Source of the DNA: Myxococcota bacterium
GTDB lineage: Bacteria > Myxococcota_A > UBA9160 > UBA6930
DNA length: 64,000 bases
Direction: 5' to 3'
NCBI GenBank assembly: GCA_965223705.1
Contig: OZ245015.1
Span: 1,792,001-1,856,000, forward strand
This document shows, one piece after another, positions 41,092 through 62,490 of this stretch. The notes under the pieces are model-generated. The model made no database searches and was not told the origin of the DNA. It worked only from the letters and a program-made list of their open reading frames with translations. Each line of letters opens with the position of its first letter. The stretch's first letter is position 1. A program made the translations under genes and the position numbers.

Positions 41092-41144
41092 GACGTTGCA
41101 ACCGCTAAATGTGTCGGCAGCGAAGTTGCTGCGAGGAGCCGAGA

Positions 41145-41882: not shown

Positions 41883-41907
41883 AGCGCGGGTAGCCGCGGA
41901 CCCGTTT

Positions 41908-45263: not shown

Positions 45264-45267
45264 CCTG

Positions 45268-45891: not shown

Positions 45892-45907
45892 GACGGCCGC
45901 CTCATGG

Positions 45908-46042
45908 CTATGCCACCTCCGCGGGGGCCTTCAGCCCGGCCTCAGTGAAAATGAACCGCACCTGCGCCGCCAAATACACCGAGGTCACGAGCGCCGCTCC
46001 GCCTATGAATTCTCCGAGGTGCGCGAGTTGTGTGAGGTTCAT
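45908..46042 (-). pseudogene. 44-aa N-terminal stub of the same membrane-anchored family
   Basis: MNLTQLAHLGEFIGGAALVTSVYLAAQVR...*. Confidence 0.6.
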
Positions 46043-46044
46043 GG

Positions 46045-46554
46045 CTAGGCCTCCCCAACGTTCGGGCGGTAGTAGGGAAGGAGATCCGTGACCTTTGGGT
46101 ACTTGGATTTTTCGGACTCAATAAATGAGACAAAAGCAGGATCCAGACCGACTTTGATCGAATCCCACCAGGGGTGAACTCCTTCAACGTTAATCACGAT
46201 CGCATTGAACCCAATTGCAACGTTGAGGATGTCTGGGTCGCTCAAACCACGCTGCTTTAGCATGAATGCGGTCTGGGCAAGCATCATGTGAGTGATGAAC
46301 TGATGGCTGGCTGCCGTTTTATCGTCGTTGTTCAGAGCTTCAAAATCCACCATTGCCCGCCGAATGATCTTGCTGATACCCGGCCTCGCGCCCTCCCTCA
46401 TGACCGCGTTGTACTCGTGGAGGAATGATCGAACCGTTTCGGCACTCGCGAGCTTGTTACTGTGGCGCACTTGGAGCCCAACGAAGAGCAGCGATGCAAC
46501 CACCGCCACGCCCCCGACCAGTTCTCCGATCGCCCCGAGTTCCATGATGTCCAT
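46045..46554 (-). CDS. Membrane-anchored protein, same family
   Basis: MDIMELGAIGELVGGVAVVASLLFVGLQVRH...GVHPWW...DPAFV; GGAGG RBS. Confidence 0.75.
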   Translation of the reverse strand: MDIMELGAIGELVGGVAVVASLLFVGLQVRHSNKLASAETVRSFLHEYNAVMREGARPGISKIIRRAMVDFEALNNDDKTAASHQFITHMMLAQTAFMLKQRGLSDPDILNVAIGFNAIVINVEGVHPWWDSIKVGLDPAFVSFIESEKSKYPKVTDLLPYYRPNVGEA

Positions 46555-46709
46555 GTCGGCCTCCTCCCTTCGGATGAATGGAATTCTCGCATGGCGCGGT
46601 CGCTGGGCTGCAACTTCTCGATCGATGGCATGTCGCGCTGAAGCCCTAGGGGCGCAACGCCAGTTCCTCCCAGGAGCTCCCCCTATCTCGAGAAGTTTCG
46701 AGCTCCCGA

Positions 46710-46950
46710 CTGATGGCTTACCGAGCGGGGTAGGCGATCGAGTGTTGGTGAGTCGACGTCGCGCCGCTTGGCGAGGCGCATGAGCTCGTCGAGTGCGGGA
46801 CGCATGTCCTTAACGCCGGAAGTGCTGTGGTCGGTAAACCCGTGAGTGACTGTGAAAGCCGCGAGCGGCCGAGTGCTGGCGGAGAGGTTCAATCTAGACT
46901 TCTGGGACCGATCGGTGGCGGAGACCCTGGCGTAGCGAGAGGCGCGTAAC
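46710..46950 (-). pseudogene. Decayed serine recombinase (resolvase/invertase)
   Basis: YARVS, D...SG...RPALDELMRLA.RR.VD, LDRL.RS; internal deletions and no C-terminus. Confidence 0.75.
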
Positions 46951-47021
46951 GCGAAGTCGTGTAGGTGCCAAGTGGTTCGTGGCACACTTCCCCGAGTTCG
47001 ATGCGAAGGAGGATTGCGAAC

Positions 47022-47480
47022 ATGGATCTTAACCAACTAGCAAATGTGGGGGAGTTCATTGGCGGAGTCGCCGTCATCGTGTCGCTGCTGTTCGTCGGAT
47101 TCGAAATTCGTCAGACCAACGCGACTCTGAAGTCCACCACTAGCTATGAAGCGTTGAAGAACTTCAACGGACTGAACGAGGTGTTTATCGCAGATGCGTC
47201 TCTGTCCTCGCTCGTGTATCGACTCGAATGCGGGGAAGAGAATCTCGATGCCGACGAAAAGGCGCGCCTCCACTACTGCCTTCGCACTGCTTTTCAGCAC
47301 ATGGCGGCGCAGCAGTTCCTTCATCGTCGCGGACTCTTAGAAGACTCACTCTGGGAGCGATACATAACATTCGCTAGAGCGATTACGAGCACAGGGTATG
47401 GGGCTGAGTGGTGGGCCGCCGATTCGGTTCGTGCGCCCTATCCGCCGGAGTTCGTTCGCACATTGAACAAGAGAGCATAG
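47022..47480 (+). CDS. Membrane-anchored protein, same family
   Basis: MDLNQLANVGEFIGGVAVIVSLLFVGFEIRQ...GAEWW...YPPEFV; AAGGAGG RBS. Confidence 0.78.
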   Translation: MDLNQLANVGEFIGGVAVIVSLLFVGFEIRQTNATLKSTTSYEALKNFNGLNEVFIADASLSSLVYRLECGEENLDADEKARLHYCLRTAFQHMAAQQFLHRRGLLEDSLWERYITFARAITSTGYGAEWWAADSVRAPYPPEFVRTLNKRA

Positions 47481-47482
47481 TT

Positions 47483-47620
47483 GTGGCCGCGTTAGAGCTC
47501 ATAAGCCTCCGGGAGTTTGTCGGTGGTGTCGCAATGCTGGTCACGTCGGTCTACCTCGCGGTCCAGCTGGCGGGTAGGCATCATGTCGGGCCTAGCCGGA
47601 GGTTCGATGGACGAACTTGA
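47483..47620 (+). pseudogene. 45-aa N-terminal stub of the same family
   Basis: ...REFVGGVAMLVTSVYLAVQL...*. Confidence 0.5.
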
Positions 47621-48548
47621 GGCAGGCCGACTCTACCCATGGGAAGAGCTTGGAGAGCTGTTTGGCTTCGCGCCCAACTACCTCGGGGCGGCCGGCGGCA
47701 TGGTCAGCCGTCCCAACCACAATGCGCTGCTTCTGATTTCTCATCCAGGCGGAGCAAAGTCGTTCGACTACGACGACTACTGGGACGGAGACGATCTCGT
47801 CTACACGGGTCGAGGGAAGACAGGAGACCAGAGACTAGAAGGCCAGAATCGAGATGTGGCTGAAAATGCCAAGCAACTCTTGGTTTTCGAGCCCGCGGGA
47901 AGCAGAAAGCTCTTATACCTAGGGATCTGTGTTTGCCTTGACCACTGGGAGGCAACCGGCACCGATGACAATGGGAACGAGCGAAAAATCCTTCGGTTCC
48001 ATCTTTCGTTCGAAGAGCCCATACCAAAGTCAAGTGAGGCGCTGAATTCCTCAGCTAGGCGACGGGATCCCCCGAGGCGCCGGCCCCGGAAGCTTCGAAG
48101 CTCGCTACCGGCACCCCCGAAGGCCAACACGAAGCATCAGAGTCGCGAGGAGACCCTGGCTCTGCAGGAGAAGGCCAACGAAAAGCACCACATGATGCTC
48201 TTGGCATTGGAGCAATGGCTCCAGGCTAGTGGTTGGACCGAGATCGAAGAAATTCCATCGGCTATCGACCTCTGGGCACGCCATCCAACGAAAGATGGAC
48301 GAGTCATCTTCGAAGCCAAAACGATCCACCTGGACAATGAGGTGAGTCAATCGCGATCTGGGCTCTCTCAGTTGCTTGAGTATCGGTTCTTCTTCGGATC
48401 TCCGGAAGACGAGCTCTGCTTGGTCTGCGATTCGACGCTTTCTGATAGCCGAATTCGGTTCCTGGAGGATTCGGGCGTCGCGGTTCTCAGCTGGAATGGT
48501 CAGTCGATGACGCCGGTCGGCGTCAGGTATCGGTCCATGCTCGCGTAA
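47607..48548 (+). CDS. SRA-like domain + PD-(D/E)XK nuclease (putative modification-dependent restriction enzyme)
   Basis: GGM, YDDYWDGDDLVYTGRGKTGDQRL...N (SRA-type); IDLW...IFEAKT...GLSQLLEY (PD-(D/E)XK). Confidence 0.72.
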   Translation: MDELEAGRLYPWEELGELFGFAPNYLGAAGGMVSRPNHNALLLISHPGGAKSFDYDDYWDGDDLVYTGRGKTGDQRLEGQNRDVAENAKQLLVFEPAGSRKLLYLGICVCLDHWEATGTDDNGNERKILRFHLSFEEPIPKSSEALNSSARRRDPPRRRPRKLRSSLPAPPKANTKHQSREETLALQEKANEKHHMMLLALEQWLQASGWTEIEEIPSAIDLWARHPTKDGRVIFEAKTIHLDNEVSQSRSGLSQLLEYRFFFGSPEDELCLVCDSTLSDSRIRFLEDSGVAVLSWNGQSMTPVGVRYRSMLA

Positions 48549-48900
48549 GCCCCGTGACCGGACGCGGTCGAAGGCGGGGGAGGGCTAGACGCAAATTGTT
48601 CATGGGCGGCTATCTCCTAGTTGTACACGTCGTTGTCTGATCGAGACGCCCTGCGCACCCGAGGCTCGACGGGAAGGCCGAGAGGGCTGACGAACGAACG
48701 CACGACGTCGGAGGCTGGTGTGCTGCTGGTATCTTCGGCTGACGAAACTTGTGGCGCGAATCTGGCGCGAACTCATGCAAATAGTGCCAAAACGGGCCCG
48801 TAAGGTCCTGAGTTGACGTCGACGCTAAATCGCTGCAACGTATCGGTATTGCAAAGAAAAGGGGCTAGCTGCGCGAACCGCAAAGGGTTCAATAAAGACT

Positions 48901-48977
48901 GGGACGTTAGCTCAGTTGGCTAGAGCGCTGTGTTCACACCGCAGAGGTCACTGGTTCGAATCCAGTACGTCCCACCA
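48901..48977 (+). tRNA. tRNA-Val(CAC)
   Basis: Acceptor GGGACGT/ACGTCCC, D arm AGCTCAGTTGGCTAGAGC, anticodon arm CTGTG-TTCACAC-CGCAG, GGTTCGAATCC, encoded CCA. Confidence 0.96.
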
Positions 48978-49059
48978 CCACGGTCTGCGCGACACCTAGC
49001 TCTCGACCGACAGATTGATCGCATCGGCTCGGGCAGGCCGTGCTTATAATACGGCCCGT

Positions 49060-49617
49060 ATGCCCCCCGAAATCTCCCGACGCGACTTCCTCACAGTGAC
49101 CGCCGGCGCTGTGCTTGGACGCCTTGCCTTCAGCGCTGGGCCCGTTGCACTACTCGCGCCGACGACGACCTGGGCGCTTTCGCCGAAGGTGCTCACCGCG
49201 GAGGAAGCTGCGCAGTTGCTCTCGGTCGTGCGGCGTATCTATCCGCACGAAACCCTCGAAGACGCCGTCTACGCACTCGTTGTCAAAGACCTCGACGCCG
49301 AGGCGGGCGGCAACCCCGAAGTCGCGGCGTTGCTCAAGGAGGGGCTGGCGGAGCTCGACGCCGCCAATGAAGGGGGCTGGCGAGGTGCCGCCCCCGGGCG
49401 CCAACTGGCGCTTCTCAAGGAGCGCGAGACGACGCCCTTCTTTCAAAAGGTGCGGAGTACCGCTGTGGTTTCTCTCTACAACAACGAGCTGGCGTTCGCG
49501 CACTTCGGCTACGAGGGCGCCGCGTTCGAACAGGGCGGCTATCTCATTCGCGGTTTCGACGATCTCGATTGGCTGCCAGCGCCCGACGCCGCCGCAAGCC
49601 CGCCGAGGCCGGCATGA
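49060..49617 (+). CDS. Tat-exported partner subunit of the GMC dehydrogenase (gluconate 2-DH subunit 3-like)
   Basis: SRRDFL twin-arginine motif; IYPH, FGYEG...GGY..RGFDDLDWL. Confidence 0.82.
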   Translation: MPPEISRRDFLTVTAGAVLGRLAFSAGPVALLAPTTTWALSPKVLTAEEAAQLLSVVRRIYPHETLEDAVYALVVKDLDAEAGGNPEVAALLKEGLAELDAANEGGWRGAAPGRQLALLKERETTPFFQKVRSTAVVSLYNNELAFAHFGYEGAAFEQGGYLIRGFDDLDWLPAPDAAASPPRPA

Positions 49618-51182
49618 CGCGCTTCGACCACGACGACAACTCGGTGGTGGTGGTGATCGGGTCGGGTGCGGGCGGCGGCACCCTGGCGAACGAGCTCTGT
49701 CAAAAAGGGATCTCCGTCGTTCTCCTCGAGGCGGGCAAGCGCGAGTCGCAGGCTTCCTTCGTGAACGACGAGTGGCCTTCCTTCAATCAGCTGGCGTGGC
49801 TCGACAAGCGCACGACCTCGGGCAGCTGGCGCGTCGCCAAGGACTTTCCCAATTTGCCCGCCTGGATCTGCAAGACCGTCGGTGGGACCACCACGCATTG
49901 GGCCGGGGCGAGCCTTCGCATCCGCGAGCACGAGTTCCGCGCGCGCAGTCACTACGGCGCGGTCGACGGCGCGAACCTCCTCGATTGGCCTCTCACGCTT
50001 GCGGAGCTCGAGCCCTACTACGCGAAGGCCGAGGCCAAGCTCGGGGTGACGCGCACCAACGATGTGGCGGGCCTACCGGGCAACAACAACTTCCGGGTGA
50101 TGTACGCCGGCGCGCAGAAGCTCGGGTACAAGAACTGTCACACCGGTCGCATGGCCATCAACAGTCGCCCGCGCGCCGGCCGCGCGTCGTGCCTCCAGCT
50201 GGGCTTCTGCTTCCAGGGCTGCAAATCCGGCGCGAAGTGGTCGACGCTCTACACCGAAATCCCCGCTGCTGAGGCGACGGGGAAGCTCGACCTGCGTCCC
50301 GAGAGCCACGCCTTGCAGATCACCCACGACGCGACCGGCAAGGTCACGGGCGTGGTCTATGCCGACGCGGACGGAAACCAGCACGCGCAACAAGCGCGCG
50401 CGGTGTGTGTCGCCGGGAACTCCATCGAAACGCCGCGCCTGCTCCTCCATTCGGCGAGCTCCATGTTTCCCGACGGCCTTGCGAACTCGTCAGGGCAGGT
50501 CGGTCGCAACTACATGCGGCACACGACGGGTTCGGTCTACGCGACCTTCGAGAACCCTGTTCACATGTACCGCGGTACGACGATGGCCGGCATCATCACC
50601 GACGAGAGCCGGCACGACCCGAGCCGCGGTTTCGTCGGTGGCTACGAGATGGAGACCATCGCGCTCGGTCTTCCGTTCATGGCGGCGTTCCTCGACCCCG
50701 GCGCGTGGGGAGCCGAGTTCACGCACGTGCTCGATCAATACACCCACACGGCAGGGATGTGGATCGTCGGCGAAGACATGCCGCGAGAGAGCAATCGCAT
50801 CACGCTCCATGCGACGGAGAAGGACGCGAACGGCGTGCCGATCCCGAACGTTCACTTCGACGACCACCCGAACGACGAGGCGATGCGCGAGCACGGTTTC
50901 CGCCAGGGAAGCGCCGTCTACGAAGCCGCGGGCGCGCGTCAGGTGGTGCGCACGCCGCCTTATCCGTCGACGCACAACCTGGGCACGTGTCGGATGAGCG
51001 CCGAGCCCAAGGACGGCGTGTGCAACCGCTTCGGCCAGACCCACGATGTGCCGAACCTCTTCATTTCCGACGGAAGCCAGTTCACCACCGGCGCCGCCGA
51101 GAACCCGACGCTGACCATCGTCACCCTGGCGATCCGCCAAGCGGATCACATCGCCACGCAGCTGAAACAGCAAGCGCTCTAG
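49614..51182 (+). CDS. GMC family oxidoreductase (FAD)
   Basis: VIGSGAGGG, VGGTTTHWAG, C...GFC...C, GRNYMRH, HNLGTCRM, ENPTLTI. Confidence 0.93.
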   Translation: MTRFDHDDNSVVVVIGSGAGGGTLANELCQKGISVVLLEAGKRESQASFVNDEWPSFNQLAWLDKRTTSGSWRVAKDFPNLPAWICKTVGGTTTHWAGASLRIREHEFRARSHYGAVDGANLLDWPLTLAELEPYYAKAEAKLGVTRTNDVAGLPGNNNFRVMYAGAQKLGYKNCHTGRMAINSRPRAGRASCLQLGFCFQGCKSGAKWSTLYTEIPAAEATGKLDLRPESHALQITHDATGKVTGVVYADADGNQHAQQARAVCVAGNSIETPRLLLHSASSMFPDGLANSSGQVGRNYMRHTTGSVYATFENPVHMYRGTTMAGIITDESRHDPSRGFVGGYEMETIALGLPFMAAFLDPGAWGAEFTHVLDQYTHTAGMWIVGEDMPRESNRITLHATEKDANGVPIPNVHFDDHPNDEAMREHGFRQGSAVYEAAGARQVVRTPPYPSTHNLGTCRMSAEPKDGVCNRFGQTHDVPNLFISDGSQFTTGAAENPTLTIVTLAIRQADHIATQLKQQAL

Positions 51183-51187
51183 GCGAC

Positions 51188-51937
51188 ATGAAGGACGCGG
51201 AACGCTCCCTCGTTCAGCAGGCGACGAGCCTCGAGGAGGGACAGCTCGACGCCGAAGAACTCGAGGCGCACCGCTCCGCACACGAGCGCTGGGTGGCCAG
51301 CGAGGGACGGGAGGGGAGGCCTCTCACGCTGCCGGGGGCGAACCTTCGCTACGCCATGCTGTTCGAAGCCTGCGTGCGCGGCGCCAAGCTGGCCGGTGCC
51401 GACCTCTTTCACGCGAATCTCCGCGACTGTGATCTGGAAGCGTCGGAGCTCCGCGGCGCCCAGCTCGAGGGCGCGAGCATGGTGAACACGAATCTCACGG
51501 GCGCCGATCTTCGCGACGCGAACCTCGATAAATGCGTCGCTCCCGGTTCGATCTTCCGCGCGGCGAACGCGGTGTCGGCGAGCCTTTGCGAGGCGAACCT
51601 GCTGGGCGCCGACTTGTCGGGCGCAGACCTCCGAGGCGCCGATCTGCGAGACGCGAATCTCGCCGGGAGCAACCTCGCCGGTGTCGACCTCCGCGAGGCC
51701 TGTCTCGAGGGCGCAAAGCTGATGATGGTCGATCTCAGTGGCGCGACCCTCAGGGGTGCGTCGCTCGACCGAGCCGTGATGTTCGGAACAACGCTCGCCG
51801 CGACCGATCTCCGAGGAACGGATCTCACGGGCGCGGAAGGCCTCACCCCGCCTCAGGTCGAGACGGCGCAGGGCGACGCGGAAACCCGCTTGCCCGAATC
51901 GCTAGGCGATGTTCGCTTACAGGGCGGAACCGAGTAA
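51188..51937 (+). CDS. Pentapeptide repeat protein
   Basis: Many tandem A(D/N)LxG/R pentapeptides; N-terminal H..WV...GREG. Confidence 0.9.
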   Translation: MKDAERSLVQQATSLEEGQLDAEELEAHRSAHERWVASEGREGRPLTLPGANLRYAMLFEACVRGAKLAGADLFHANLRDCDLEASELRGAQLEGASMVNTNLTGADLRDANLDKCVAPGSIFRAANAVSASLCEANLLGADLSGADLRGADLRDANLAGSNLAGVDLREACLEGAKLMMVDLSGATLRGASLDRAVMFGTTLAATDLRGTDLTGAEGLTPPQVETAQGDAETRLPESLGDVRLQGGTE

Positions 51938-52023
51938 ACCGCGGCGCTCATTGTACTTGGCCCCCTCGGTTGCAGGGGATATGATCGATCAGAAGCCCCT
52001 TTCTTGGGGCGTCGGAGGGCCGG

Positions 52024-53688
52024 ATGTCTGCATCACTCACACTCTCGAAGATCATCAAGCAGAAGGGGATCAGCCTCTCCGAGGCGACCCAGCGAATCGC
52101 CGATCTGGGTTGGGCTCCGTCGTACTTCGACGAGGTCTTGAAGTACCCGACCGACTACAAGATCGAGAAAGCCCCCAAGGACCCGATGAAGCAGGTCCTG
52201 CGCTCCTACTTCCCCATGCAGGAAGAGAAGGACAACCGCGTCTACGGCGCGCTCGACGCGGCGCTGCGCGGCGACATGTTCCGCAATGTCGAACCCCGCT
52301 GGATCGAGTGGCAAAAGCTCTTCCTCGGGATCATCCCCTTCCCGGAGATCTCAGCGGCGCGGTCGATGGCGATCGAGTCCCAGATTGCACCCGGTGAGAA
52401 CCTCCGCACCGGCTTTACGATGCAGATGATCGATGAGCTCCGGCACTCGACGATTCAGATGAATCTCAAGAAGTGGTACATGGAGAACTACATCGATCCC
52501 GCGGGCTTCGACATCACCGAGGAAGCCTTCGGCAAGTGCTACGCCACCACGATCGGCCGCCAGTTCGGCGAGGGTTTCATCACCGGCGACGCGGTAACCG
52601 CGACGAACATCTACCTCCAGGTAGTCGCCGAGACGGCCTTCACCAACACGCTCTTCGTCGCCATGCCCTCCGAAGCGGCTCGCAACGGCGATTACGCCCT
52701 GCCGACGGTGTTCCTCTCGGTGCAGTCCGACGAATCGCGGCACATCGGCAACGGCCACTCGTTCCTGATGTCGATCATCAAGGAGCCGGAGAACCTCGAG
52801 CTGATCGAGCGCGATCTCCGCTACTCGTTCTGGCAGAACCACGCCATCGTCGATGCCGCCATCGGCACCATCATCGAGTACGGCACGAAGGACCGCGACA
52901 AGAACAAGGAGTCCTACGCCGAGCTCTGGCACCGCTGGATCTTCGACGACTACTACCGGACCTACATGCTGCCCCTCGAGAAGTATGGGGTGAAGATCCA
53001 TCACGACGACGTCGAAGAGGCGTGGAACCGCATCGTGAAGGGCGACTACGTTCACAAGGTCGCCCAGTTCTTCTCGATCGGTTGGCCGGTTGCCTTCTGG
53101 CGCATCGACGGAATGACTGAACGCGATTTCGAGTGGTTCGAGGCCAAGTATCCGGGTTGGTACAACAAATTCGGCACCTACTGGGAGAACTACCGCAAGG
53201 CCAGCCTGCCCGAACAAGCGCCGCTCCTCTACCTCGACTCGGGGTACGTCTATCCGCACCGCTGCTGGAGCTGCAACGTTCCGTGTCTCATCCGCGAAGA
53301 TTTCTGCGTGGATGAGGTCGAGGGCGAGCTCTACACCTACTGCTCCGAAGTCTGCCGCTGGACCCACAAGGTGGCCTTCGCCGGCGAGTACAACGGGCGA
53401 CCGACCCCTGCGATGGGACGCTTCAGCGGCCGGCGGCAGTGGGAAGAGGTCTATCACGGTTGGGATCTCGCCGACGCGATCAAAGATCTGGGCTTCGTGC
53501 GATCCGACGGCGAGACGCTCATCCAACAGCCGCACCTCCACTTCGACGATTCGAAGATGTGGAAGCTCGAGCACGTCCGGGGGTTGGAGCTCCGCAGTCC
53601 GCTGCTCGATCTCCGGGCCATGTCGCCGGAGGAGCGCGAGCGACACATCGCGGAGTACCGGGCCGGCTTTACCGAAAAGCCGATCTAG
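52024..53688 (+). CDS. prmA: Soluble di-iron monooxygenase hydroxylase alpha subunit (propane/acetone monooxygenase type)
   Basis: Di-iron ligands FPEISA, DELRH, AETAF, DESRH; KDPMKQVLRSYFPMQEEKDNRVYGA, PSEAARNGD, GRPTPAMG. Confidence 0.93.
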   Translation: MSASLTLSKIIKQKGISLSEATQRIADLGWAPSYFDEVLKYPTDYKIEKAPKDPMKQVLRSYFPMQEEKDNRVYGALDAALRGDMFRNVEPRWIEWQKLFLGIIPFPEISAARSMAIESQIAPGENLRTGFTMQMIDELRHSTIQMNLKKWYMENYIDPAGFDITEEAFGKCYATTIGRQFGEGFITGDAVTATNIYLQVVAETAFTNTLFVAMPSEAARNGDYALPTVFLSVQSDESRHIGNGHSFLMSIIKEPENLELIERDLRYSFWQNHAIVDAAIGTIIEYGTKDRDKNKESYAELWHRWIFDDYYRTYMLPLEKYGVKIHHDDVEEAWNRIVKGDYVHKVAQFFSIGWPVAFWRIDGMTERDFEWFEAKYPGWYNKFGTYWENYRKASLPEQAPLLYLDSGYVYPHRCWSCNVPCLIREDFCVDEVEGELYTYCSEVCRWTHKVAFAGEYNGRPTPAMGRFSGRRQWEEVYHGWDLADAIKDLGFVRSDGETLIQQPHLHFDDSKMWKLEHVRGLELRSPLLDLRAMSPEERERHIAEYRAGFTEKPI

Positions 53689-53703
53689 GGCACTAGCGAC
53701 ACG

Positions 53704-54747
53704 ATGGCGCACTCCGTTCGTCTGCAGCCCGTCGACATCGAGATGACTGTCGAGGAGGACGAGACCGTCCTCCAGGCGGCATTTCGGCAAGGCATCACCT
53801 TGATGCACGGGTGCAAGGAAGGACAGTGCGCGTCGTGCAAGTCGATCCTCCTGGAGGGCGACGCCGAGCATCTCGACTTCTCGACCTTTGCGCTCTCGGA
53901 GCCGGAGCAAGAGGAGGGCCACGTCCTCCTCTGCCGGTTGCAGGCCTACAGCGATCTCGAGATTGAGCTGCTGAACTACGACGAGGACGTGCTCACCACC
54001 TGGATCCCCGCCAAGCAGCTCACCGGAAAGGTCGCGTCGGTCGAGGCGCTGACCCACGATATCCGGAGGCTCGCCATCGATCTCGACGAGCCGCTGGTGT
54101 TTCGCGCGGGTCAGTTCGTCGACTTGACGCTCTCGGAGCCGAGCGTCACGCGCTCCTATTCCATGGCCAACCCGCCGAGCGATCCCGACCGCCTCGAGTT
54201 CATCATCAAGGTCTATCCCGACGGCGCGTTTTCGAGCCGGCTCGAGGCGGACGCGCTTGCGCCGGGTGCACCGATCGGGGTCGAGGGGCCGTTCGGAATG
54301 AGCTTCCGAGACGAGGCACACGACGGACCCGTTCTGCTGGTGGGTGGGGGCTCGGGGATGTCGCCGCTCTGGTCCATCTTGAACGACCTCGCCGAGAAGG
54401 CGCCGCAGAAACCGCTCCACTTCTACTACGGCGTCCGGGCGAAGCGCGACCTCTTCTACGCCGAAGAGCTCGCGTCCCTCGGCGAGAAGTTCGACGCGTT
54501 CCATTTCGTGCCCGCCTTGTCGGAGCCCGATCCCGGAGACGATTGGCAGGGGGAGACGGGCTTCATCCACGAGGTGGTGGCGCGCGATTTCCCGGGGGCG
54601 GGGGCGTATGCGCCGATGGAAGCCTACGCGTGTGGCCCTCCTCCGATGGTGGAAGCGGTCCTACCGGTCTTTCAACGCATGGGCATCCAGGCGGACCACA
54701 CCCACCTCGACAAGTTCACCCCCGCGGCGGATCCCAAGCGGCCCTAA
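53704..54747 (+). CDS. prmB: SDIMO reductase ([2Fe-2S]/FAD/NADH)
   Basis: GCKEGQCASCK...LLC, RSYSMAN, GGGSGMSP, YACGPPPMV. Confidence 0.92.
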   Translation: MAHSVRLQPVDIEMTVEEDETVLQAAFRQGITLMHGCKEGQCASCKSILLEGDAEHLDFSTFALSEPEQEEGHVLLCRLQAYSDLEIELLNYDEDVLTTWIPAKQLTGKVASVEALTHDIRRLAIDLDEPLVFRAGQFVDLTLSEPSVTRSYSMANPPSDPDRLEFIIKVYPDGAFSSRLEADALAPGAPIGVEGPFGMSFRDEAHDGPVLLVGGGSGMSPLWSILNDLAEKAPQKPLHFYYGVRAKRDLFYAEELASLGEKFDAFHFVPALSEPDPGDDWQGETGFIHEVVARDFPGAGAYAPMEAYACGPPPMVEAVLPVFQRMGIQADHTHLDKFTPAADPKRP

Positions 54748-54770
54748 GCGCGGAACCATAGGAGTCGGAG

Positions 54771-55838
54771 ATGGCGGAAAACACGGAACAATCGGGCGCA
54801 GCTGGGGCGAAGACCTTCGCCGGCTCCGACAGTCGCAAGTTCAACTACTTCGAGCCGGAAGGGCGCCGGGCAACCCTCTACGAAGATGTGACGGTCGACG
54901 TCCAGCCGGACCCGAGTCGCCACCTGCTGCAGGGCTGGATCATGTCCTTTGCGGACGGCAAGCCGAGCTATCACGAAGGCACGACATCCCTTCGCTCGAC
55001 CGACTGGCATCGATACCGCGCGCCCGATCAGGAATGGGAGCGCACCCACTACCAGCGCCAGAGTGAGATCGAGCGAACCATCAAGACTCTCGTCGAAAGT
55101 GCACGGGGCGCGGGAGCGCCGCAGCGCTTCGACAAAGACTGGGTGCGAACCCTCCAAGACCACGTGGGAGCCGTCAAGCACGCCGAGTTCGGCCTGGGCG
55201 TGGCCCTCTCTACCGCCCAGCGGGACGGCGTCACCCAGATGGTCAACAACTCCATTCTGACGAACGCCTCGTACAAGCTCCGACTGGCGCAAGACATCAC
55301 GCTCTACCTGGGCGACATCGGGCTCGACATCGATATCGACGGCGCCGCCGGAAAGGAGCACTGGCTCGAGGATCCAGCGTGGCAGGGGGTGCGCAAGGCG
55401 ATCGAGGGAATCATCGCGACGACCGACCACATGGAGGTGTATCTCGCGACGAACCTCGTCTACGAGCCGTTGGTGGGTGAGCTGCTCCGCACCGGGTTCT
55501 TCACCCGTGCCGCGCCGCTCCACAACGATTTCGTCACTCCGGGGCTGCTCGCCCCGGCGGCGATCGACTGCCAGCGGAACCTCGCGAACACCATGGCCCT
55601 GACGGAGATGTTGGTTCGCGACGCCACGCACGGCGAGGCGAACAAGAAGGTCGTCGCGGGCTGGCTCGAGACCCACGTGCCGCGCTGTGTCGACGCCGCC
55701 AAGACGGCGAAGTCGCTGTGGGATGCGGCCGCGTCCGACAGTGTCGACTTCGCCGCGGCTTACGGGGAGGCGACGCAACGTCTCGAGGACATCCTCTCCG
55801 AACTCGACATAGCCTTGCCCGACGGAGTTTCCCTATGA
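54771..55838 (+). CDS. prmC: SDIMO hydroxylase beta subunit
   Basis: RRATLYEDVTVDVQPDP.RHL.QGW, WH.YRAPDQEWE, YEPLVGEL.R. Confidence 0.9.
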   Translation: MAENTEQSGAAGAKTFAGSDSRKFNYFEPEGRRATLYEDVTVDVQPDPSRHLLQGWIMSFADGKPSYHEGTTSLRSTDWHRYRAPDQEWERTHYQRQSEIERTIKTLVESARGAGAPQRFDKDWVRTLQDHVGAVKHAEFGLGVALSTAQRDGVTQMVNNSILTNASYKLRLAQDITLYLGDIGLDIDIDGAAGKEHWLEDPAWQGVRKAIEGIIATTDHMEVYLATNLVYEPLVGELLRTGFFTRAAPLHNDFVTPGLLAPAAIDCQRNLANTMALTEMLVRDATHGEANKKVVAGWLETHVPRCVDAAKTAKSLWDAAASDSVDFAAAYGEATQRLEDILSELDIALPDGVSL

Positions 55839-56173
55839 CCACCCAGACCTTTCACGATCTGAAACGCGAAGGCACCGTTTCGCACATGTGCGGCGTCACG
55901 ATGAACGACAGCGTGGACAGCCGCGTCATCGCCGAAGTGATGGGCGCGAAACCCGGCGTCACCATCACGAACTACCCCGCGATGATCCGCATCGACGGCG
56001 AGGACAAGCTCGTCTTCGATATGGAGGAGCTCGGCGACGCGCTGGGCAAGCCCTTCTCGCCGTACGATTTCGAGGTCGTCATGTCGACCCACTACGGTCG
56101 GATGGTCATGGAGGACGAGACCACCGTCATTTTGTTCGGAAACATGGAAGATGCCGCCGCCTACGAGGAGTAG
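55835..56173 (+). CDS. prmD: SDIMO coupling/effector protein (MmoB/DmpM family)
   Basis: SHMCGVTMND, PAMIRIDG, MSTHYGRMV; ATGA overlap with the beta subunit. Confidence 0.9.
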   Translation: MTTQTFHDLKREGTVSHMCGVTMNDSVDSRVIAEVMGAKPGVTITNYPAMIRIDGEDKLVFDMEELGDALGKPFSPYDFEVVMSTHYGRMVMEDETTVILFGNMEDAAAYEE

Positions 56174-56204
56174 CTTTTTCCCTTAGCTGCCACGGACCCC
56201 CACC

Positions 56205-57839
56205 ATGCCGAAAATGATGCTCTTTCAGGAAGAGGCCCGCGCTGCCCTCGGGCGCGGTGTCGCCACACTCACCCGCGCTGTCGGCTCGACGCTCGGGCCC
56301 AAGGGCGGCAACGCGATCATCGACGTTCCCATCGGGACCCCCATCGTGTCGCGCGACGGCGTCAGCATCGCCGCCGAGATCGAGTTACAGGATCCCTTCG
56401 AGAACATGGGCGCACAGGTCGTGCGCGAGGTCTCGAAACGCACGAACGACGTCGCCGGTGACGGAACGACCACCGCCACGGTGCTCGCCAACGCGATCAT
56501 CCAAGAGGGCTTCGAGGCACTCGACGGCTCGGTCGCGGCGATCGAGCTCAGCGAGGGCATCGACGTCGCGGTGGATGCCGTGGTCGCCACACTGCGGGAA
56601 CGCGCACAGGCCGTCGCGGACGACGACGACGCGGTGCGAGCCGTCGCGGTGATCGCGGCGAACGACCAAGAGACGGGCCACCTCGTCGCGGAAGCGCTGC
56701 GCCGAGTAGGGCCGAGTGGCCTCGTCAGCGTCGACTTGAGCCTCACGGTCGATACCACCCTCGAAGTGATCGAGGGGGCCTCGTACGAGCGCGGTTACGT
56801 GTCCCATCACATGGTGACCGACGTCGACACGATGCAGGTGCTCTTCGACGACGTGGTGTTGCTCCTCACCGACCAGGGCCTCGCGACTCAGAGCGACGTC
56901 GACGGGCTCCGCGCACTCGCCTGCGAGGCGAAGAAGCCGATGCTCGTGATCGCCGAGGACTACACCCCGGAAGCCGTGGCGGCACTGCTGCAGCCGGCGG
57001 ACGGGCCGGCGATCGTCTGCGTGCATCCCCCGGAATACGGCAAGTGGCGACGCGCGATGATGGAAGACCTGGCCATCATGACCGGCGGCCGCGTTTTCGT
57101 GAAAGACCTCGGCCACCGCTATCAGGACGCCTCCTTGGCAGATCTCGGCACGGCGCGAGGCATCTGCGTTTCGGCCGATGCGACCGTGATTTCGGGAGGC
57201 GGCGGCGACCCTGAGGCGATTCGCGGGCGAATCGCTCAGGTGAGGCGCCAAGCCGACTTGAACGACATTCCCATCGAAGAGGACAAATTCAACGAGCGAC
57301 TCGCGAAGCTTTCGGGCGGCATCGCCGTCGTCTATGCGGGTGGTGCGACTCCCGTGGAGCAGAAGAGGCGTGAGCAGCTCATCGAGGACGCGCTCAACGC
57401 GACGCGGGCCGCTATCGAAGAAGGGGTCGTTCCGGGCGGTGGTACCGCCTTGCTGCAGGCCCAGGGCGCGGTGGATGCCGTGTGCGCAGGGCTTTCGCCC
57501 GGCCGGCGTCGCGGCGCCGAAGTCGTCCGCGTCGCGCTCTCGAAGCCGCTCACCTGGATCGCCGAGAACAGCGGCGTGGATACCAAACGCGTCGTCGATC
57601 AGGTGGTCGCCGCGCCGAAAGGCACGGGCTACGACGCGCGAAGCGGCGAGCTGGTCGACATGATCGCGGCGGGGATCGCCGATCCGTTTCGCGTAACCTC
57701 GCAGGCGCTTATCAACGCCGCTTCCGTCGCGAAGCTCGTGCTCACCACCCAGACATTGATCACCGACGCCCCCGAAGAGGACGACCCCACCGCGGAACCC
57801 GCCCGAGGTGGCGGCGCCGAACGGCTCGGGATGGAGTAG
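56205..57839 (+). CDS. Monooxygenase-associated GroEL-like chaperonin
   Basis: TLGPKG, DVAGDGTTTATVLA, EEGVVPGGG; divergent apical domain, no GGM tail, no adjacent groES. Confidence 0.88.
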   Translation: MPKMMLFQEEARAALGRGVATLTRAVGSTLGPKGGNAIIDVPIGTPIVSRDGVSIAAEIELQDPFENMGAQVVREVSKRTNDVAGDGTTTATVLANAIIQEGFEALDGSVAAIELSEGIDVAVDAVVATLRERAQAVADDDDAVRAVAVIAANDQETGHLVAEALRRVGPSGLVSVDLSLTVDTTLEVIEGASYERGYVSHHMVTDVDTMQVLFDDVVLLLTDQGLATQSDVDGLRALACEAKKPMLVIAEDYTPEAVAALLQPADGPAIVCVHPPEYGKWRRAMMEDLAIMTGGRVFVKDLGHRYQDASLADLGTARGICVSADATVISGGGGDPEAIRGRIAQVRRQADLNDIPIEEDKFNERLAKLSGGIAVVYAGGATPVEQKRREQLIEDALNATRAAIEEGVVPGGGTALLQAQGAVDAVCAGLSPGRRRGAEVVRVALSKPLTWIAENSGVDTKRVVDQVVAAPKGTGYDARSGELVDMIAAGIADPFRVTSQALINAASVAKLVLTTQTLITDAPEEDDPTAEPARGGGAERLGME

Positions 57840-57863
57840 GCGGGCTCGAAGGGCGGCCTGGCG

Positions 57864-59825
57864 ATGAAACTCAGACGGCTGCGCGTTCACGCACTCAAAT
57901 CGATCCGCGCGCTCGACCATGTGTTCGGCGACAGTGGACTGACCCTCCTCGGCCGCAATGGCAGCGGCAAGACAACCGTCCTCGAGGCGATTTCGCTGCT
58001 GGGCCACGTCGGCGTGATGGCGCTGGCTCCGCTCCGGAAGGCTCCGGATGCGGGCGCGTTTGCGGCGACGCCGGGCGCGAGCCTTCTCAATGCTCTCCTC
58101 GAAGGCGACGATGCCGATGCGATTACCGGCGCGAGCCCCTCGCTCCGCGCGGCTTGCGACACCTTGGCGCGTCACTTCGGCGGCCGCGGCGATGCACTGG
58201 GTAAGCCCGAATCGAGCCGCGTGGCCGAGAGCTTTGCTGCGAGTCCCGGTGAGAATCCGGTCGAGCGTGCGTTCGAATCCCTCCGTCGCAGCGAGGGCGC
58301 CGCGATATCGCCCGCGTTGATCCTCCTCGATGTCGTCACGGAAGCGGGTGCACCGGTGTCGCTCCTCGTGCGACTCGCCCCGGGTGCCGATCTCACCGTG
58401 GTCCTCTCGCACGAATTCTCGGACCGGGAAACCGAAGCTGCGTTGACGCTCTACTTCGATGCCGAGTCGGAGCCCGCGCGCGATCTCATTTTGCGATCGC
58501 TCGCCTCACGCCCTGTGTCTCTCGGACGCAAAGGCACCAGTCGTGCGATTCCGCCTTGCCGCGCGCTGGCCGACGGGGCAGGGGTGGTGTCCTACGTCAA
58601 CACGGACCTGAACGACTTCGGTCGCGGCAACGATCTGCGCGAGTCGCCCAAGAACATCACCGACGATTTTGCGGCGGTGGTCACGCGCCTCTGCATCGAT
58701 ACGGAACGCATCCGCGCTCCCCTGAACGAAATCCTCTCGCGCATCCTGTCGCCCGACGATCGCCGCGGTTGGTCGATCGAGGAGCTCGCGGTCGAAGAGG
58801 GCCGGACCCGCCTGGTGATCACGGATCACTTCGGGAAACCCCAGCTGAGGAACCACTTGAGCGCCGGCGAGAACGAGATCTTCTTCGCGTTTCTGGTGCT
58901 TCTCGGCCTGCCGACGCGCGAGGGGATCGTGATCCTCGACGAGCCAGCGTTCCACGCGAGCCCGGAGACCGCTCCCGCCTTCTTCGATGAGCTATATGCC
59001 CTGTGCGAACGCAACGGCACACAGCTTTTCGTGGGCTCCCACAATGCGTGGTGCCTTCCCGAGACGGCGGACCAACCGACGGCAACCCTCGAAATCCCGC
59101 GGACGCCCGAAGCGGCCCACCGGCTCCTCGATCCCCTCGATTCACGCCAGCGCTTTCAAGCGCTACATCGCGACGCATTCGACCGGATCGAACGCTCCGT
59201 GAAGGGCGTTGAGCGGGCGACGCGAGACCGCGCGCGCTTGCTGGCGCATGCCGTGCGCGAAGACCTGGCCCCGCTGACGCGCCGTCTGTTCTTGGATCGG
59301 ATCGGCCTCTACGGCGGCCTAGCCGCCGCCGGCATCGTTTCGCTGCACGTGGCTACGACCGCGACGCTCCCCGTGATGTTGCTCGGTACCGGCGCTGCTG
59401 CCGCCGCGGCGGGTGTGCTCGTCTGGCTCGTCTTCAGCAACTTTGCGCGGCTTCACCGCGAACGGCAGCGCCTCGTCCAACAACAATTCGAGTCGCACTA
59501 CGCCGCGGCGGATGTACGGTCGAAGGAGCGCACACTGTTTCTCCGCGAGCTCGAAGACTCGAGCCGCTGGCAGCTTCGCGCATACCTCGGTGAAGAGCGC
59601 CTCCCGCTCCTCGAGTTTCTGCCGAACCGCGACGGCGGCGTTTGGCCCGCATTGAGCTTCACGATCGGTCACTTCTTGATCGCTGCCACGATCGTCTGGT
59701 GGTACACGGGCTCCTGGGCCCTCGGCGGCCAGGTGGCGCTGGTCGAGCCCGTCGTGAATGGCTTCTGGCACTACGCCAACGCCCACATCTGGCGGCGACG
59801 GCGGGCTGAGCGGCACCCGACCTAG
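57864..59825 (+). CDS. ABC/SMC-like (AAA_21-type) ATPase fused to TM helices and a DUF2061-like C-terminal domain
   Basis: GRNGSGKTT, LSAGE, IVILDEP, GSHN; C-terminal LSFTIGHFLIA...TGS..LGGQVALVEPVVN.FWHY....IW. Confidence 0.7.
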   Translation: MKLRRLRVHALKSIRALDHVFGDSGLTLLGRNGSGKTTVLEAISLLGHVGVMALAPLRKAPDAGAFAATPGASLLNALLEGDDADAITGASPSLRAACDTLARHFGGRGDALGKPESSRVAESFAASPGENPVERAFESLRRSEGAAISPALILLDVVTEAGAPVSLLVRLAPGADLTVVLSHEFSDRETEAALTLYFDAESEPARDLILRSLASRPVSLGRKGTSRAIPPCRALADGAGVVSYVNTDLNDFGRGNDLRESPKNITDDFAAVVTRLCIDTERIRAPLNEILSRILSPDDRRGWSIEELAVEEGRTRLVITDHFGKPQLRNHLSAGENEIFFAFLVLLGLPTREGIVILDEPAFHASPETAPAFFDELYALCERNGTQLFVGSHNAWCLPETADQPTATLEIPRTPEAAHRLLDPLDSRQRFQALHRDAFDRIERSVKGVERATRDRARLLAHAVREDLAPLTRRLFLDRIGLYGGLAAAGIVSLHVATTATLPVMLLGTGAAAAAAGVLVWLVFSNFARLHRERQRLVQQQFESHYAAADVRSKERTLFLRELEDSSRWQLRAYLGEERLPLLEFLPNRDGGVWPALSFTIGHFLIAATIVWWYTGSWALGGQVALVEPVVNGFWHYANAHIWRRRRAERHPT

Positions 59826-59840
59826 CGCGGCCGGTCCAGG

Positions 59841-60983
59841 TCAGACGATGGCGCCGGCCTCGCGCAACGCGTCGAGTTCGTCTCGGCGAAAGCCCCAATT
59901 CAACAGCGCTTCGTCGGTGTGCTCTCCCGGGGCGGGGGCTCCGCGCTGAATGCTCGAGGGGGTTCGGCTGAAGCGCGGCGCTGGGGCCGGCTGCATGAAC
60001 CCGTCGCGTTCGATGAACGTCTCGCGGGCCTTGTTGTGAGGATGCTCGGGCGCTTCAGCCAGTGACAGCACCGGTGCAAAGCAGACCTCCTCGCCTTCCA
60101 TGATCGCGCACCACGCATCGCGCGTACGCGTGCGGAACACCGCCGCGAAGCGCTCGCGCATCTCCGGCCAATGGTCTCGGTCCTCCTGGGCCGGGAGATC
60201 CTCGTGGGCCAGCCCGAGGATCTCGAGGGTCCGCCGGTAGAACTTGGGCTCGTTCGAACCCAGGGAGACGTATTTTCCGTCGGCGGTTTCGTAGACACCG
60301 TAGTAAGGGGAGCCTGAATCGAGGCGGTTCGAACCCCGCTCGTCGCGCCACAGACCGGCGGCATACATGCCGTACGTGAGGTTCATGAGTGAAGCGCTGC
60401 CGTCGACCATCGCGGCGTCGACCACCTGACCCTCACCGCTGCTGCGGCACTCGAGAAGGGCGGCCAACATGCCGAGGGCCAAGTACAGCGCGCCGCCCCC
60501 GAAGTCGCCGGCCAGGTTGAGGGGAGGGACGGGCGGTCCGCCGGGCGAGCCGACCGCGTGCAGCACGCCGGTCAGCGCGATGTAGTTGATGTCGTGGCCC
60601 GGCGCATCGACCAACGGGCCCTGCTGGCCCCAACCGGTCATCCGTCCGTACACGAGTCGAGGGTTCGTCGCTAAGCAGGCGTCGGGACCGACACCGAGCC
60701 GCTCCGCCACGCCGGGCCGAAAGCCTTCGATGAGCCCGTCTGCCTCACGGATGAGCTTCTCGACCGCCGCGATCGCCTCCGGACGTTTGAGATCCATCGC
60801 TACCGAGCGCATGCCCCGATGGAGGAGCATGAACTTCGGATCCATCGGAAGCTCGCTGCCCAACCGCGCAACGCGGTCGATGCGGACAACGTCGGCGCCG
60901 AGATCCGCGAGCAGCGCCCCCGCAAAGGGCCCCGGCCCGATACCGCCCAATTCGAGAATCCTGATTCCGGCGAGGGGCCCCAT
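59841..60983 (-). CDS. CaiB/BaiF CoA-transferase family (alpha-methylacyl-CoA racemase-like)
   Basis: GPLAGIRILELGGIGPGPF, EGFRPGVAERLG, GHDINYIA, NLAGDFGGG, PAPAPRFSRT. Confidence 0.93.
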   Translation of the reverse strand: MGPLAGIRILELGGIGPGPFAGALLADLGADVVRIDRVARLGSELPMDPKFMLLHRGMRSVAMDLKRPEAIAAVEKLIREADGLIEGFRPGVAERLGVGPDACLATNPRLVYGRMTGWGQQGPLVDAPGHDINYIALTGVLHAVGSPGGPPVPPLNLAGDFGGGALYLALGMLAALLECRSSGEGQVVDAAMVDGSASLMNLTYGMYAAGLWRDERGSNRLDSGSPYYGVYETADGKYVSLGSNEPKFYRRTLEILGLAHEDLPAQEDRDHWPEMRERFAAVFRTRTRDAWCAIMEGEEVCFAPVLSLAEAPEHPHNKARETFIERDGFMQPAPAPRFSRTPSSIQRGAPAPGEHTDEALLNWGFRRDELDALREAGAIV

Positions 60984-61059
60984 CCCGACGATCTCCTCGG
61001 CGCCCGCCTGCCGCGTCGCACGACGCCGGGGTGCCGACGCCAATCTAACCCGCACAGCG

Positions 61060-62490
61060 CTAAAAGTTGTAATCGAACTCGAGACCGAGGAACTGGGACC
61101 AGCGTCCCGAACGGTGACCAAAGGCCGTGCCTGCTCGGAACAAGCTACCCACGATCTCGATCTCCCAATGGGTCCATTCCTCGAGGCCGATCACGAGGTC
61201 CCACCCTTGACCGATGGTTTTCCCGCGGCCATTGGGGGAGATGCGGAGCTCGCTGTCGCGCAGGAAGTCCGCGGCATGATCTTGTCGGTAGTAGTGGTAG
61301 AGGAGCTCGACCGAACTGTCCCGAAAAAGCGGATAGCCCACGCCGACGGTTCCCACGTGAAGGTTGGAAAGTTCGGGTCGAAGTAGCTCCCCGTAAAGTC
61401 GGAACCGATCCACGCCGCGGAAGCGACCATTGTTGTCCTGGAGGCCGGTCTGTCGAAAGGATCGGTCTGTTCCCTCGCCGTCATCGCCGCTTCCGTAAGC
61501 CCAACCGAGCGTCCAGGTCACGCCCCCTTTGCTACCGGGATCGAGGGTGACGCCTCCGTCAACCGCGAAGCCCCGCACGTCGATTTCGTCCACTTCGTCG
61601 AGAATCCGCACACCGGGCGAGCCGGCGATCCGGTCGTAGTCGAACCGCTTCTCGTCGCCCCACACACCGGCGAGGTCGAGCCAGTAGTAGAAGCGCCCGA
61701 ACGGATCGCGTTTGAGCCGCCCACGATTGCGGAGACCGAGCCAGGTGAGCTTGGCATCGATCTCGTCCTCGCGGCTGGTCGAGACCAAGCTCCCCAGCGC
61801 CCCTTCGCTCGATCGGTCGTCATGGCGGAGGAAGAACAGCTCGGTGGTCTTGCGCTCCGCCCAGTCCCAGCGCGCGTAGCCGAGGATCCGTCGCACCTTG
61901 TCTTCCGCGGGGTCGATGCGGTCATCGTGCCCGCGAACCCGCGCGAGCTCCTGGGCCACCGCGAGCTCGATCCGGAAGGGCTCGCTGTTCCAATGAAGCC
62001 GGACCGCGTCGAGATCGGCGTCCCACCAGAACTCCCGCTTGTCCTTGAAGTTCTGGCGCCCCACTTGAAGGGCGAGCGGGGTGTCGAGGATGTCGGCCCA
62101 ATAGAGCCAGGTTTCGCCGCGCTCGACGAACAACCGGTGGTGATCGCTCCCCCCGTCTGGGGCGCGAAAGAGCCAATCCCATCCGACCTTGACCTCGCCG
62201 AAGAGGATGAGATTCGGGTTGACCGGGTAGACGGCCTCGATCTCGAGCTTGTGGCTCGCATCGTATTCTTCGTCTTCCTCGCCGTGCTCGAGCTCGCGAT
62301 CGGCGCGGAAGTCCCAGCTCGATTCGATCTCTCCGCCGATGGTGATTTCCTCGCCGTAGATGCGCACCGTCTGCTGTTTGTCGGGGCGGTTTTCGTCATC
62401 GCGCCGCACGATGTCACGCGGGTTTGCGGCCAGAATGGGTGCCGCTGCAAGTTGAAGGGAGGTCAGGACCAAAGCGAGCAGCGTCTTCAT
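61060..62490 (-). CDS. Alginate export (AlgE-like) outer membrane beta-barrel
   Basis: Signal peptide; VGRQ, WWD.DLD, FRQTGLQDN, GELLRPELSNL; C-terminal Phe. Confidence 0.85.
   Translation of the reverse strand: MKTLLALVLTSLQLAAAPILAANPRDIVRRDDENRPDKQQTVRIYGEEITIGGEIESSWDFRADRELEHGEEDEEYDASHKLEIEAVYPVNPNLILFGEVKVGWDWLFRAPDGGSDHHRLFVERGETWLYWADILDTPLALQVGRQNFKDKREFWWDADLDAVRLHWNSEPFRIELAVAQELARVRGHDDRIDPAEDKVRRILGYARWDWAERKTTELFFLRHDDRSSEGALGSLVSTSREDEIDAKLTWLGLRNRGRLKRDPFGRFYYWLDLAGVWGDEKRFDYDRIAGSPGVRILDEVDEIDVRGFAVDGGVTLDPGSKGGVTWTLGWAYGSGDDGEGTDRSFRQTGLQDNNGRFRGVDRFRLYGELLRPELSNLHVGTVGVGYPLFRDSSVELLYHYYRQDHAADFLRDSELRISPNGRGKTIGQGWDLVIGLEEWTHWEIEIVGSLFRAGTAFGHRSGRWSQFLGLEFDYNF

Follow-up and report, generated by a model that had tools for sequence, protein, structure and literature searches.

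Group 5 monooxygenases and the locus analyzed

Soluble di-iron monooxygenases (SDIMOs) of the propane type pass electrons from NADH through a reductase to a di-iron alpha/beta hydroxylase; a coupling protein gates the reaction, and a GroEL of the cluster's own aids folding. Group 5 SDIMOs cover diverse substrates, and ketones are proposed as the usual substrates for subgroup B (Yang et al. 2025, PMC11825192). The mycobacterial MimABCD of this subgroup hydroxylates acetone to acetol (cited in PMC7176365). Subgroup C is widespread and occurs mostly in organisms without known growth on alkanes; according to the 2025 review none of its enzymes is characterized, and what exists are knockouts in Methylocella (PMC11825192). 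Methylocella needs prmA at 20% propane. In M. silvestris a delta-1641 mutant accumulates acetol and does not grow on 2-propanol or acetone (PMC7364539), and the purified GmcAB of Methylacidiphilum oxidizes acetol to methylglyoxal but not four other alcohols (bioRxiv 10.64898/2026.06.11.731722).

The stretch analyzed here, referred to as the window, is 64,000 nt of contig OZ245015.1 (positions 1,792,001 to 1,856,000) from the Myxococcota bacterium assembly GCA_965223705.1. It contains a group 5 operon, prmABCD with a GroEL gene, which is a real and intact member of this known enzyme family. With three genes directly upstream, the operon may form an eight-gene module for C3 oxidation that leads from acetone over acetol and methylglyoxal to lactate and pyruvate, a reading that is held with moderate confidence from the gene content.

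Operon integrity and group assignment

All five ORFs (open reading frames) reported in the initial annotation are present on the + strand, tightly spaced and in the order alpha-reductase-beta-coupling-GroEL (Table 1). The start of the coupling protein gene overlaps the end of the beta gene (ATGA). No gamma ORF is found between the operon genes in 52024-57839, and this order without gamma is the one given for group 5 (PMC11825192). Both DExRH motifs of the alpha subunit are intact, as had been stated (DELRH at 137 and DESRH at 236), and all six di-iron ligands, four Glu and two His, are in place (E108, E138, H141, E203, E237 and H240). The dedicated chaperonin also stands as described: the GroEL-like protein is distinct from the housekeeping groESL, retains GDGTTT, lacks the GGM tail and has its apical motif altered to GYVSHHM. 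The only groES of the genome adjoins the housekeeping groEL, and none lies beside the operon GroEL-like gene.

By its sequence, the alpha subunit is a member of SDIMO group 5, subgroup C. Identity is 76.5% to the PrmA of Methylocella tundrae and 63% to that of Rhodococcus, where the group calls for at least 40%, and does not exceed 39% to ThmA and to groups 3, 4 and 6. A 74-row tree places it inside group 5 (support 100), as the initial annotation had proposed, and on the proteobacterial side, subgroup C, with a support of 99-100 in the Shimodaira-Hasegawa-like approximate likelihood ratio test; subgroup B and Thm have one reference each in this tree. Within 5C the alpha falls in a distinct subclade (support 100/99) together with that of G068, a genome of the same order and another family, and those of one gammaproteobacterial order. 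The G068 alpha is the sister copy, with 92.6% identity. The gammaproteobacterial alphas are 85-90% identical and come from 21 of the 81 genomes of their order; where members of this order are named, they bear the label Gammaproteobacteria or Pseudomonadota. At 16 pocket positions, picked by the authors from an alignment with MMOX, the alpha is identical to the PrmA of both Methylocella and Rhodococcus (16/16), and seven of the positions differ from ThmA.

An acetol dehydrogenase-type gene pair upstream of prmA

Three co-directional genes lie between the tRNA-Val gene and prmA. The first two encode a GMC oxidoreductase pair, with the stop of the small-subunit gene overlapping the start of the flavoprotein gene, and the third encodes a pentapeptide-repeat protein. 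Alcohol or ketone catabolic genes of the usual kind had not been seen next to the operon; this has to be corrected, because the pair directly upstream (49060-51182) is of the acetol dehydrogenase type. The flavoprotein is 70% identical over 522 aa, without gaps, to a GMC protein of M. tundrae, which is the 11th gene of its prm cluster, the position of Msil_1641 when counted from Msil_1651. Orthology to Msil_1641 is thus by position and gene count in M. tundrae and not by the M. silvestris sequence. The small-subunit match of M. tundrae also sits in the prm cluster, annotated as 'gluconate 2-dehydrogenase subunit 3 family'. Present in the flavoprotein are H95, H303, H454, GAAEN (493-497) and the three-Cys motif CLQLGFCFQGC. 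The pair shows the architecture of an acetol dehydrogenase: a GMC large subunit with active-site His and Asn and iron-sulfur cysteines, and a separate small subunit with a twin-arginine translocation (Tat) signal. From its sequence, the putatively Tat-exported pair points to a route from acetone over acetol to methylglyoxal. A perfect TATAAT is found about 10 nt before the ATG of the small-subunit gene (49040-49060), with no matching -35, and may reflect a leaderless transcript.

In the host order, GMC matches at E<=1e-100 are found in five of 193 genomes: the host (G000), G067, G068 and two small genomes of the same genus without SDIMO. Both group 5 carriers of the order are among the five. 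Among subclade loci the pair changes side and orientation or is missing, as might be expected of a loosely attached passenger gene pair, and the diverse range of group 5 would also accommodate a monooxygenase for another small substrate such as phenol, butanone, an ether or N-nitrosodimethylamine. This combination is nevertheless quite unlikely, as GMC genes adjoin prm in distant hosts, Methylocella, Azospirillum and Sphingomonas among them, the pocket departs from that of the tetrahydrofuran-type ThmA, and elsewhere the genome encodes a group 2 phenol hydroxylase accompanied by a ring-cleavage dioxygenase.

A pentapeptide-repeat gene fixed in the subclade

The pentapeptide-repeat protein is a fixed accessory of this 5C subclade. 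Its gene stands before prmA in all eight named subclade loci that have upstream sequence (two more have none), and in G068 too, and in 0 of 69 loci outside the subclade. A held-out set of subclade loci has it in 11 of 11 new loci. A search of its own finds the gene in 24 of the 81 genomes of the gammaproteobacterial order, 20 of them among the 21 with a full-length prmA; in three of the other four prmA is cut by the contig end, and in the fourth the contig ends 150 nt after the gene. In the host order the gene is found in two of 193 genomes, the same two that have a group 5 alpha. The protein is kept at 42-55% identity across two phyla. Since the carrier genomes are kin, the linkage to prmA may be one ancestral event.

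The structure model of the protein has a pLDDT of 85, and its best folds are HetL and synthetic solenoids. A full-text literature search gave no paper linking a pentapeptide-repeat protein with an SDIMO, and the gene is a candidate new SDIMO accessory. The best guess is that this acidic, predicted beta-helix protein acts in regulation or assembly and replaces a lost activator, because in distribution, that is by linkage, the gene takes the place of the sigma-54 activator.

Promoter and regulator

A sigma-70-type promoter candidate lies between the pentapeptide-repeat gene and prmA (Table 1). All 10 subclade loci have the pattern TTG...N16-18...TAnnnT upstream of prmA, where shuffled sequences predict 0.53, and so do 2 of 70 non-subclade loci (3.8 expected); in the held-out subclade loci it occurs in 8 of 11, with 1.0 expected. 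A sigma-54 motif upstream of prmA is found in 0 of 10 subclade loci versus 29 of 70 others. In the host genome, 107 of the 1820 genes with an upstream gap of at least 60 nt carry the sigma-70-type motif, and none was found before the other three SDIMO clusters in the stretches scanned. Outside the subclade, 58 of 69 loci have a sigma-54 activator no more than 10 kb away, as do 44 of the 49 that are full-length; none was found in the 11 subclade loci, only five of which are at least 17 kb long. No regulator is present at the locus, as had been noted initially. Loss of the sigma-54 activator together with a conserved sigma-70-type promoter suggests always-on expression, and the monooxygenase genes are probably constitutive.

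The proposed pathway and its alternatives

In the proposed pathway the reductase would feed NADH electrons to the alpha/beta hydroxylase, gated by the coupling protein, and the cluster GroEL would help in folding. Physiologically, the hydroxylase would most likely convert acetone to acetol and would also accept propane. The Tat-exported GMC pair would oxidize acetol to methylglyoxal, as suggested by its 70% identity, and its orthology by position, to a gene tested by knockout. Glyoxalase I, which is found above cut-off elsewhere in the genome, may then start the detoxification of methylglyoxal and carry flux toward lactate and pyruvate. Expression would be constitutive, from the sigma-70-type promoter. 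A lactate dehydrogenase was not secured in the genome search, and the search for isocitrate lyase gave only a partial match of 87 positions. A CoxI gene is present.

The label 'propane-type' used in the initial annotation is plausible in itself, and the gene context favors acetone. A main role in the activation of propane or other short-chain alkanes, with acetone handling as a downstream clean-up of 2-propanol, should be considered. The pocket is identical to that of actinobacterial PrmA, the Methylocella requirement cited above concerns propane, and the genome has a group 6 cluster of the propane-1-monooxygenase type, a methylmalonyl-CoA mutase and 12 pyrroloquinoline quinone (PQQ) alcohol dehydrogenases above the TIGR03075 cut-off. 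Four of these 12 have the motif WDYD, presumably lanthanide-binding. Alkane activation is nonetheless possible rather than favored, since the linked GMC is of the acetol type, the module has no secondary alcohol dehydrogenase, the proposal of Yang et al. for subgroup B names ketones, and subgroup C is found mostly outside known alkane growers.

Several observations weigh against the acetone module with constitutive expression. The promoter site of the window, taken alone, is no better than chance; the pattern was picked after viewing the subclade sequences, and the genomes are kin. Three held-out loci from close kin have no motif, and one held-out locus has a sigma-54-like match. A distant regulator may act in trans. 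The monooxygenase has a promoter candidate of its own and may be transcribed apart from the GMC pair. GMC genes adjoin prm (within 10 kb) in only 14 of 79 loci, and they were matched in 69 plasmid records versus about 15 with a near-complete group 5 alpha. Three genomes of the comparison (G001, G002 and G067) carry the GMC gene, and no group 5 alpha was found in them. Farther along the pathway, glyoxalase II scores 176 bits against a cut-off of 200.8, and for glcD the best match also falls short of its cut-off and is split in two overlapping frames (C1:388458-389695), where the split may be real or an assembly indel. Acetone may also have another route, because the genome encodes an acetone-carboxylase-like trio (Table 1). 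Finally, the enzymes of this subclade are known from their genes.

Table 1. Positions of the operon, its upstream genes and related clusters (window positions; C1, main contig of the genome)
Feature	Position	Strand	Evidence and remarks
GMC small subunit (GmcB / gluconate-2-dehydrogenase subunit 3-like)	49060..49617	+	Tat motif SRRDFL; 37% over 181 aa to M. tundrae gene
GMC flavoprotein, putative acetol dehydrogenase (Msil_1641 / GmcA type)	49614..51182	+	Pfam GMC_oxred N and C
Pentapeptide-repeat protein, 249 aa, acidic, predicted beta-helix	51188..51937	+	Pfam Pentapeptide
Sigma-70-type promoter candidate, TTGGCC-N17-TATGAT	51957..51985	+	38 nt before prmA; single match, 1.0 expected by chance
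Hydroxylase alpha subunit, PrmA/MimA type, 554 aa	52024..53688	+	Pfam Phenol_Hydrox; identity, trees, ligands, pocket
NADH reductase PrmB (2Fe-2S, FAD)	53704..54747	+	Pfam Fer2+FAD+NAD; CKEGQCASC and LCR motifs
Hydroxylase beta subunit PrmC	54771..55838	+	PF02332 Phenol_Hydrox, 218 bits; 53% to M. tundrae beta
Coupling protein PrmD/MimD	55835..56173	+	PF02406 MmoB_DmpM; best NCBIfam model MimD, 128.6 bits (under the cut-off of 150)
Dedicated GroEL-like chaperonin, PrmG/MimG type	56205..57839	+	Pfam Cpn60; 42% to the single housekeeping GroEL
Group 2 phenol hydroxylase, intradiol dioxygenase behind	C1:2768064-2773442		Reductase moved in front of dmpK
Group 6 cluster, alpha-beta-coupling-reductase	C1:3283795-3287716		56.6% to PH-06 and NBB4 alphas; clade support 97
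Group 7 cluster, beta-coupling-alpha-reductase	~C1:3299038-3302903		Alpha 63.2% to ZmoC (WP_051362144.1)
Acetone-carboxylase-like three-gene operon	C1:3316932-3321924		366 bits to solved acetone carboxylase alpha; 14 kb from group 7 cluster

Host, assembly and origin of the module

All taxon-named PyrG relatives of the host are labelled 'Myxococcota' or 'Deltaproteobacteria bacterium', and rows so labelled fall inside the host family on the PyrG tree. This result, for one marker and with NCBI labels, is in line with the Myxococcota- or Deltaproteobacteria-like host proposed initially; the host order is presumably UBA9160. The surprise expressed there at such a host was overstated. The supplement of Yang et al. 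2025 has two entries for 'Myxococcales sp.', NNL84659.1 in group 5 and NNL85854.1 in group 7, of which the main text mentions only the latter (PMC11825192), and prmABC is described in Binatota. A former deltaproteobacterium with a group 5 SDIMO has thus been published already, if barely discussed. A published description of this operon was not found in the literature searched.

SDIMOs were found in 0 of the 60 nearest relatives, and the group 5 operon in 0 of 32 genomes of the same family; many of the relatives surveyed are incomplete, and such counts mean 'not found'. Strong PF02332 matches occur in five of 193 order genomes, counting only those with E<1e-30, as the raw tally of 118 of 193 consists mostly of weak ferritin-like matches of 23-45 bits. 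Two of the five are group 1-like, and only the host and G068 have a group 5 alpha. In a 400-genome sample of the phylum, two further alphas were detected, both distant (24% and 29%), and none of group 5. The two group 1-like SDIMOs (G106:C189 and G108:C1; loci L137 and L138) are divergent, with 38-40% identity to XamoA and a long branch, and in G108 the beta gene is in two pieces.

With the closest large set of homologues (85-90%) in one gammaproteobacterial order and no copy in the same family, an operon that entered the assembly as a chimera or contaminant from a gammaproteobacterium has to be considered. It is highly improbable. The genome consists of two contigs (4.56 Mb, 95% complete, 0.58% contamination). 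Across 42001-62000, 29-30 of 30 bins are covered by contigs from the source study, and one record spans 48937-56372; the listed contig joints rest on about 20 letters only. In three of four runs the operon and the flank upstream of it have nearly even read depth; the runs stem from the same study as the assembly and are a consistency check, not independent support. The GC content at third codon positions (GC3) of the module is 0.76-0.88 versus a genome median of 0.79. The gene content and gene order of the operon and of its upstream part recur in the sister copy of G068, on two contigs. The chimera that the initial annotation had raised as a concern is thus largely refuted by the read and contig evidence and by the sister copy.

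A recent horizontal island was also considered and rejected, because the tRNA-Val ends are not duplicated and GC3 does not fall below the host median. With GC3 host-like or higher and no att-type repeat, the gain of the module appears old. Transfer may have gone in either direction: the two host-order alphas nest among the gammaproteobacterial ones (support 92/76), but the approximately unbiased test does not reject gammaproteobacterial monophyly (p=0.23).

Other SDIMO clusters in the genome

Beyond the prm operon, the genome carries complete SDIMO clusters of three other groups, 2, 6 and 7, and all four groups are on the main 4.54 Mb contig. The group 6 cluster has both the gene order and the clade position of its group. 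The group 7 cluster has the gene order of group 7 and an alpha at least 60% identical to ZmoC; group 4 was tried for it and rejected, since identity to EtnC-type alphas is 39%, below the 50% cut-off. In the literature available, the natural substrate is not known for group 7 as a whole. The group 6 and 7 clusters are 11 kb apart, amid many luciferase-like monooxygenases. Trees place each of the three extra clusters as sister to a copy in G067 or G068. The most similar SDIMO repertoires are found in the gammaproteobacterial order that shares the prm subclade, in which five genomes have two to six SDIMO clusters each.

Besides the acetone-carboxylase-like operon, the genome has a second pair, of hydantoinase type and with a gamma-like domain fused to it, at C1:2957644-2962043. 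The small contig C2 (17 kb) has stress-type genes, namely superoxide dismutase-like, encapsulin-like with a ferritin-like cargo, and a universal stress protein (N-terminal sequence only).

Flanking genes in the window

The ORF at 57864-59825 (+), which follows the operon, was rejected as a part of the module, since no homologue is found in any of 83 prm loci. It encodes a 653-aa ATPase of the AAA_21/AbiEii type fused to membrane helices and a C-terminal DUF2061; atlas neighbors of this protein are ATPases of 320-440 aa without the tail. Other prm loci have metal-related neighbors: an Nramp gene is near prm in 16 of 83 loci (L001, L004, L005, L006, L029 and 11 others), and a multicopper oxidase and ZIP pair follows the GroEL gene in several (L002, L034, L131). 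The host genome has no match to these Nramp or ZIP queries.

A stretch of lower GC (57-62%, GC3 0.64-0.79) extends over about 36000-48900, ahead of tRNA-Val (48901-48977) and not over the module. Its genes include a catalase, LpxR, a CsbD-like protein and three paralogous small membrane proteins that start with M(D/N)xxxxGAIGEx; no att repeat was found there. Further upstream, at 25141-29954, is a storage-lipid cluster with a PhaC-like synthase, small Pha-type genes and a WS/DGAT wax-ester synthase directly after pyrG.

Significance and comparison with described systems

The group of the enzyme is known, and an accession list in print already includes the host phylum. What appears new is the architecture of the subclade, with an acetol-dehydrogenase pair, a fixed pentapeptide-repeat gene and a sigma-70-type promoter without activator, and the repertoire of four SDIMO groups, which are undescribed in the literature searched. 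The pentapeptide-repeat gene, the promoter switch and the three further clusters had escaped the initial annotation.

The linked acetol-dehydrogenase-type genes make the question of acetone versus propane directly testable, and the near-complete genome, with groups 2, 5, 6 and 7 together, places group 7 in a pathway context. For oligotrophs that live on trace volatiles, an SDIMO without regulator and possibly with constitutive expression would be fitting, and such an enzyme could serve as an inducer-free biocatalyst. A far-reaching and, as a whole, unlikely extension is that the subclade is an always-on scavenger of trace acetone or propane that has lost sigma-54 induction and requires the pentapeptide-repeat protein as a new SDIMO accessory, either assembly factor or regulator. 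It would mark a guild of uncultured Myxococcota and Gammaproteobacteria whose members have as many as four SDIMO groups or more, group 7 among them. If this were true, the guild would be an overlooked sink for volatile C3 compounds.

Carriage of several SDIMO groups in one cell is also known from Mycolicibacterium chubuense NBB4, with four alpha-subunit places on one plasmid, unlike the present clusters, which are on the main contig of a Myxococcota-labelled host. With the acetol dehydrogenase (AceDH) GmcAB of Methylacidiphilum fumariolicum SolV, the GMC pair shares the combination of a GMC alpha and a Tat-bearing small subunit. The FAD-linked His, the catalytic His pair and G-A-x-E-N of SolV are matched by pattern and not by direct alignment. 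The SolV-type motif CDQxCGFCFQGC with the copper ligands Asp188 and Cys190 is replaced by CLQLGFCFQGC, with Leu at both ligand positions, and Methylocella likewise lacks these ligands. Since they are missing, a [Cu-4Fe-4S] cluster is not expected in the GMC protein. The partner of the SolV enzyme is a copper monooxygenase, whereas the link here is to a group 5 SDIMO; no pmoA or copper monooxygenase was found in the genome, in a search without positive control.

The subgroup 5B systems, mycobacterial MimABCD with MimG and the PrmABCD of Rhodococcus and Gordonia, have the same four-gene order, a dedicated GroEL and the same pocket, with a more distant alpha (63% identity). The operon GroEL-like protein resembles MimG in having neither a GGM tail nor its own groES. 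The Mim cluster differs in its companion genes, a Zn alcohol dehydrogenase and an amidohydrolase, in place of which the GMC pair is found here.

The closest likeness is to the prm cluster of Methylocella silvestris and M. tundrae (Msil_1651-1641, subgroup 5C). Its adjacent sigma-54 activator, cytochrome c and glyoxalase genes are absent from the present cluster, and the promoter is sigma-70-like here versus a sigma-54 motif in M. tundrae. Further differences are the upstream position of the GMC pair and the presence of the pentapeptide-repeat gene. Common to both are the order alpha-reductase-beta-coupling-GroEL, the iron ligands, the pocket and a linked GMC pair (70% and 37% identical) with the same three-Cys motif.

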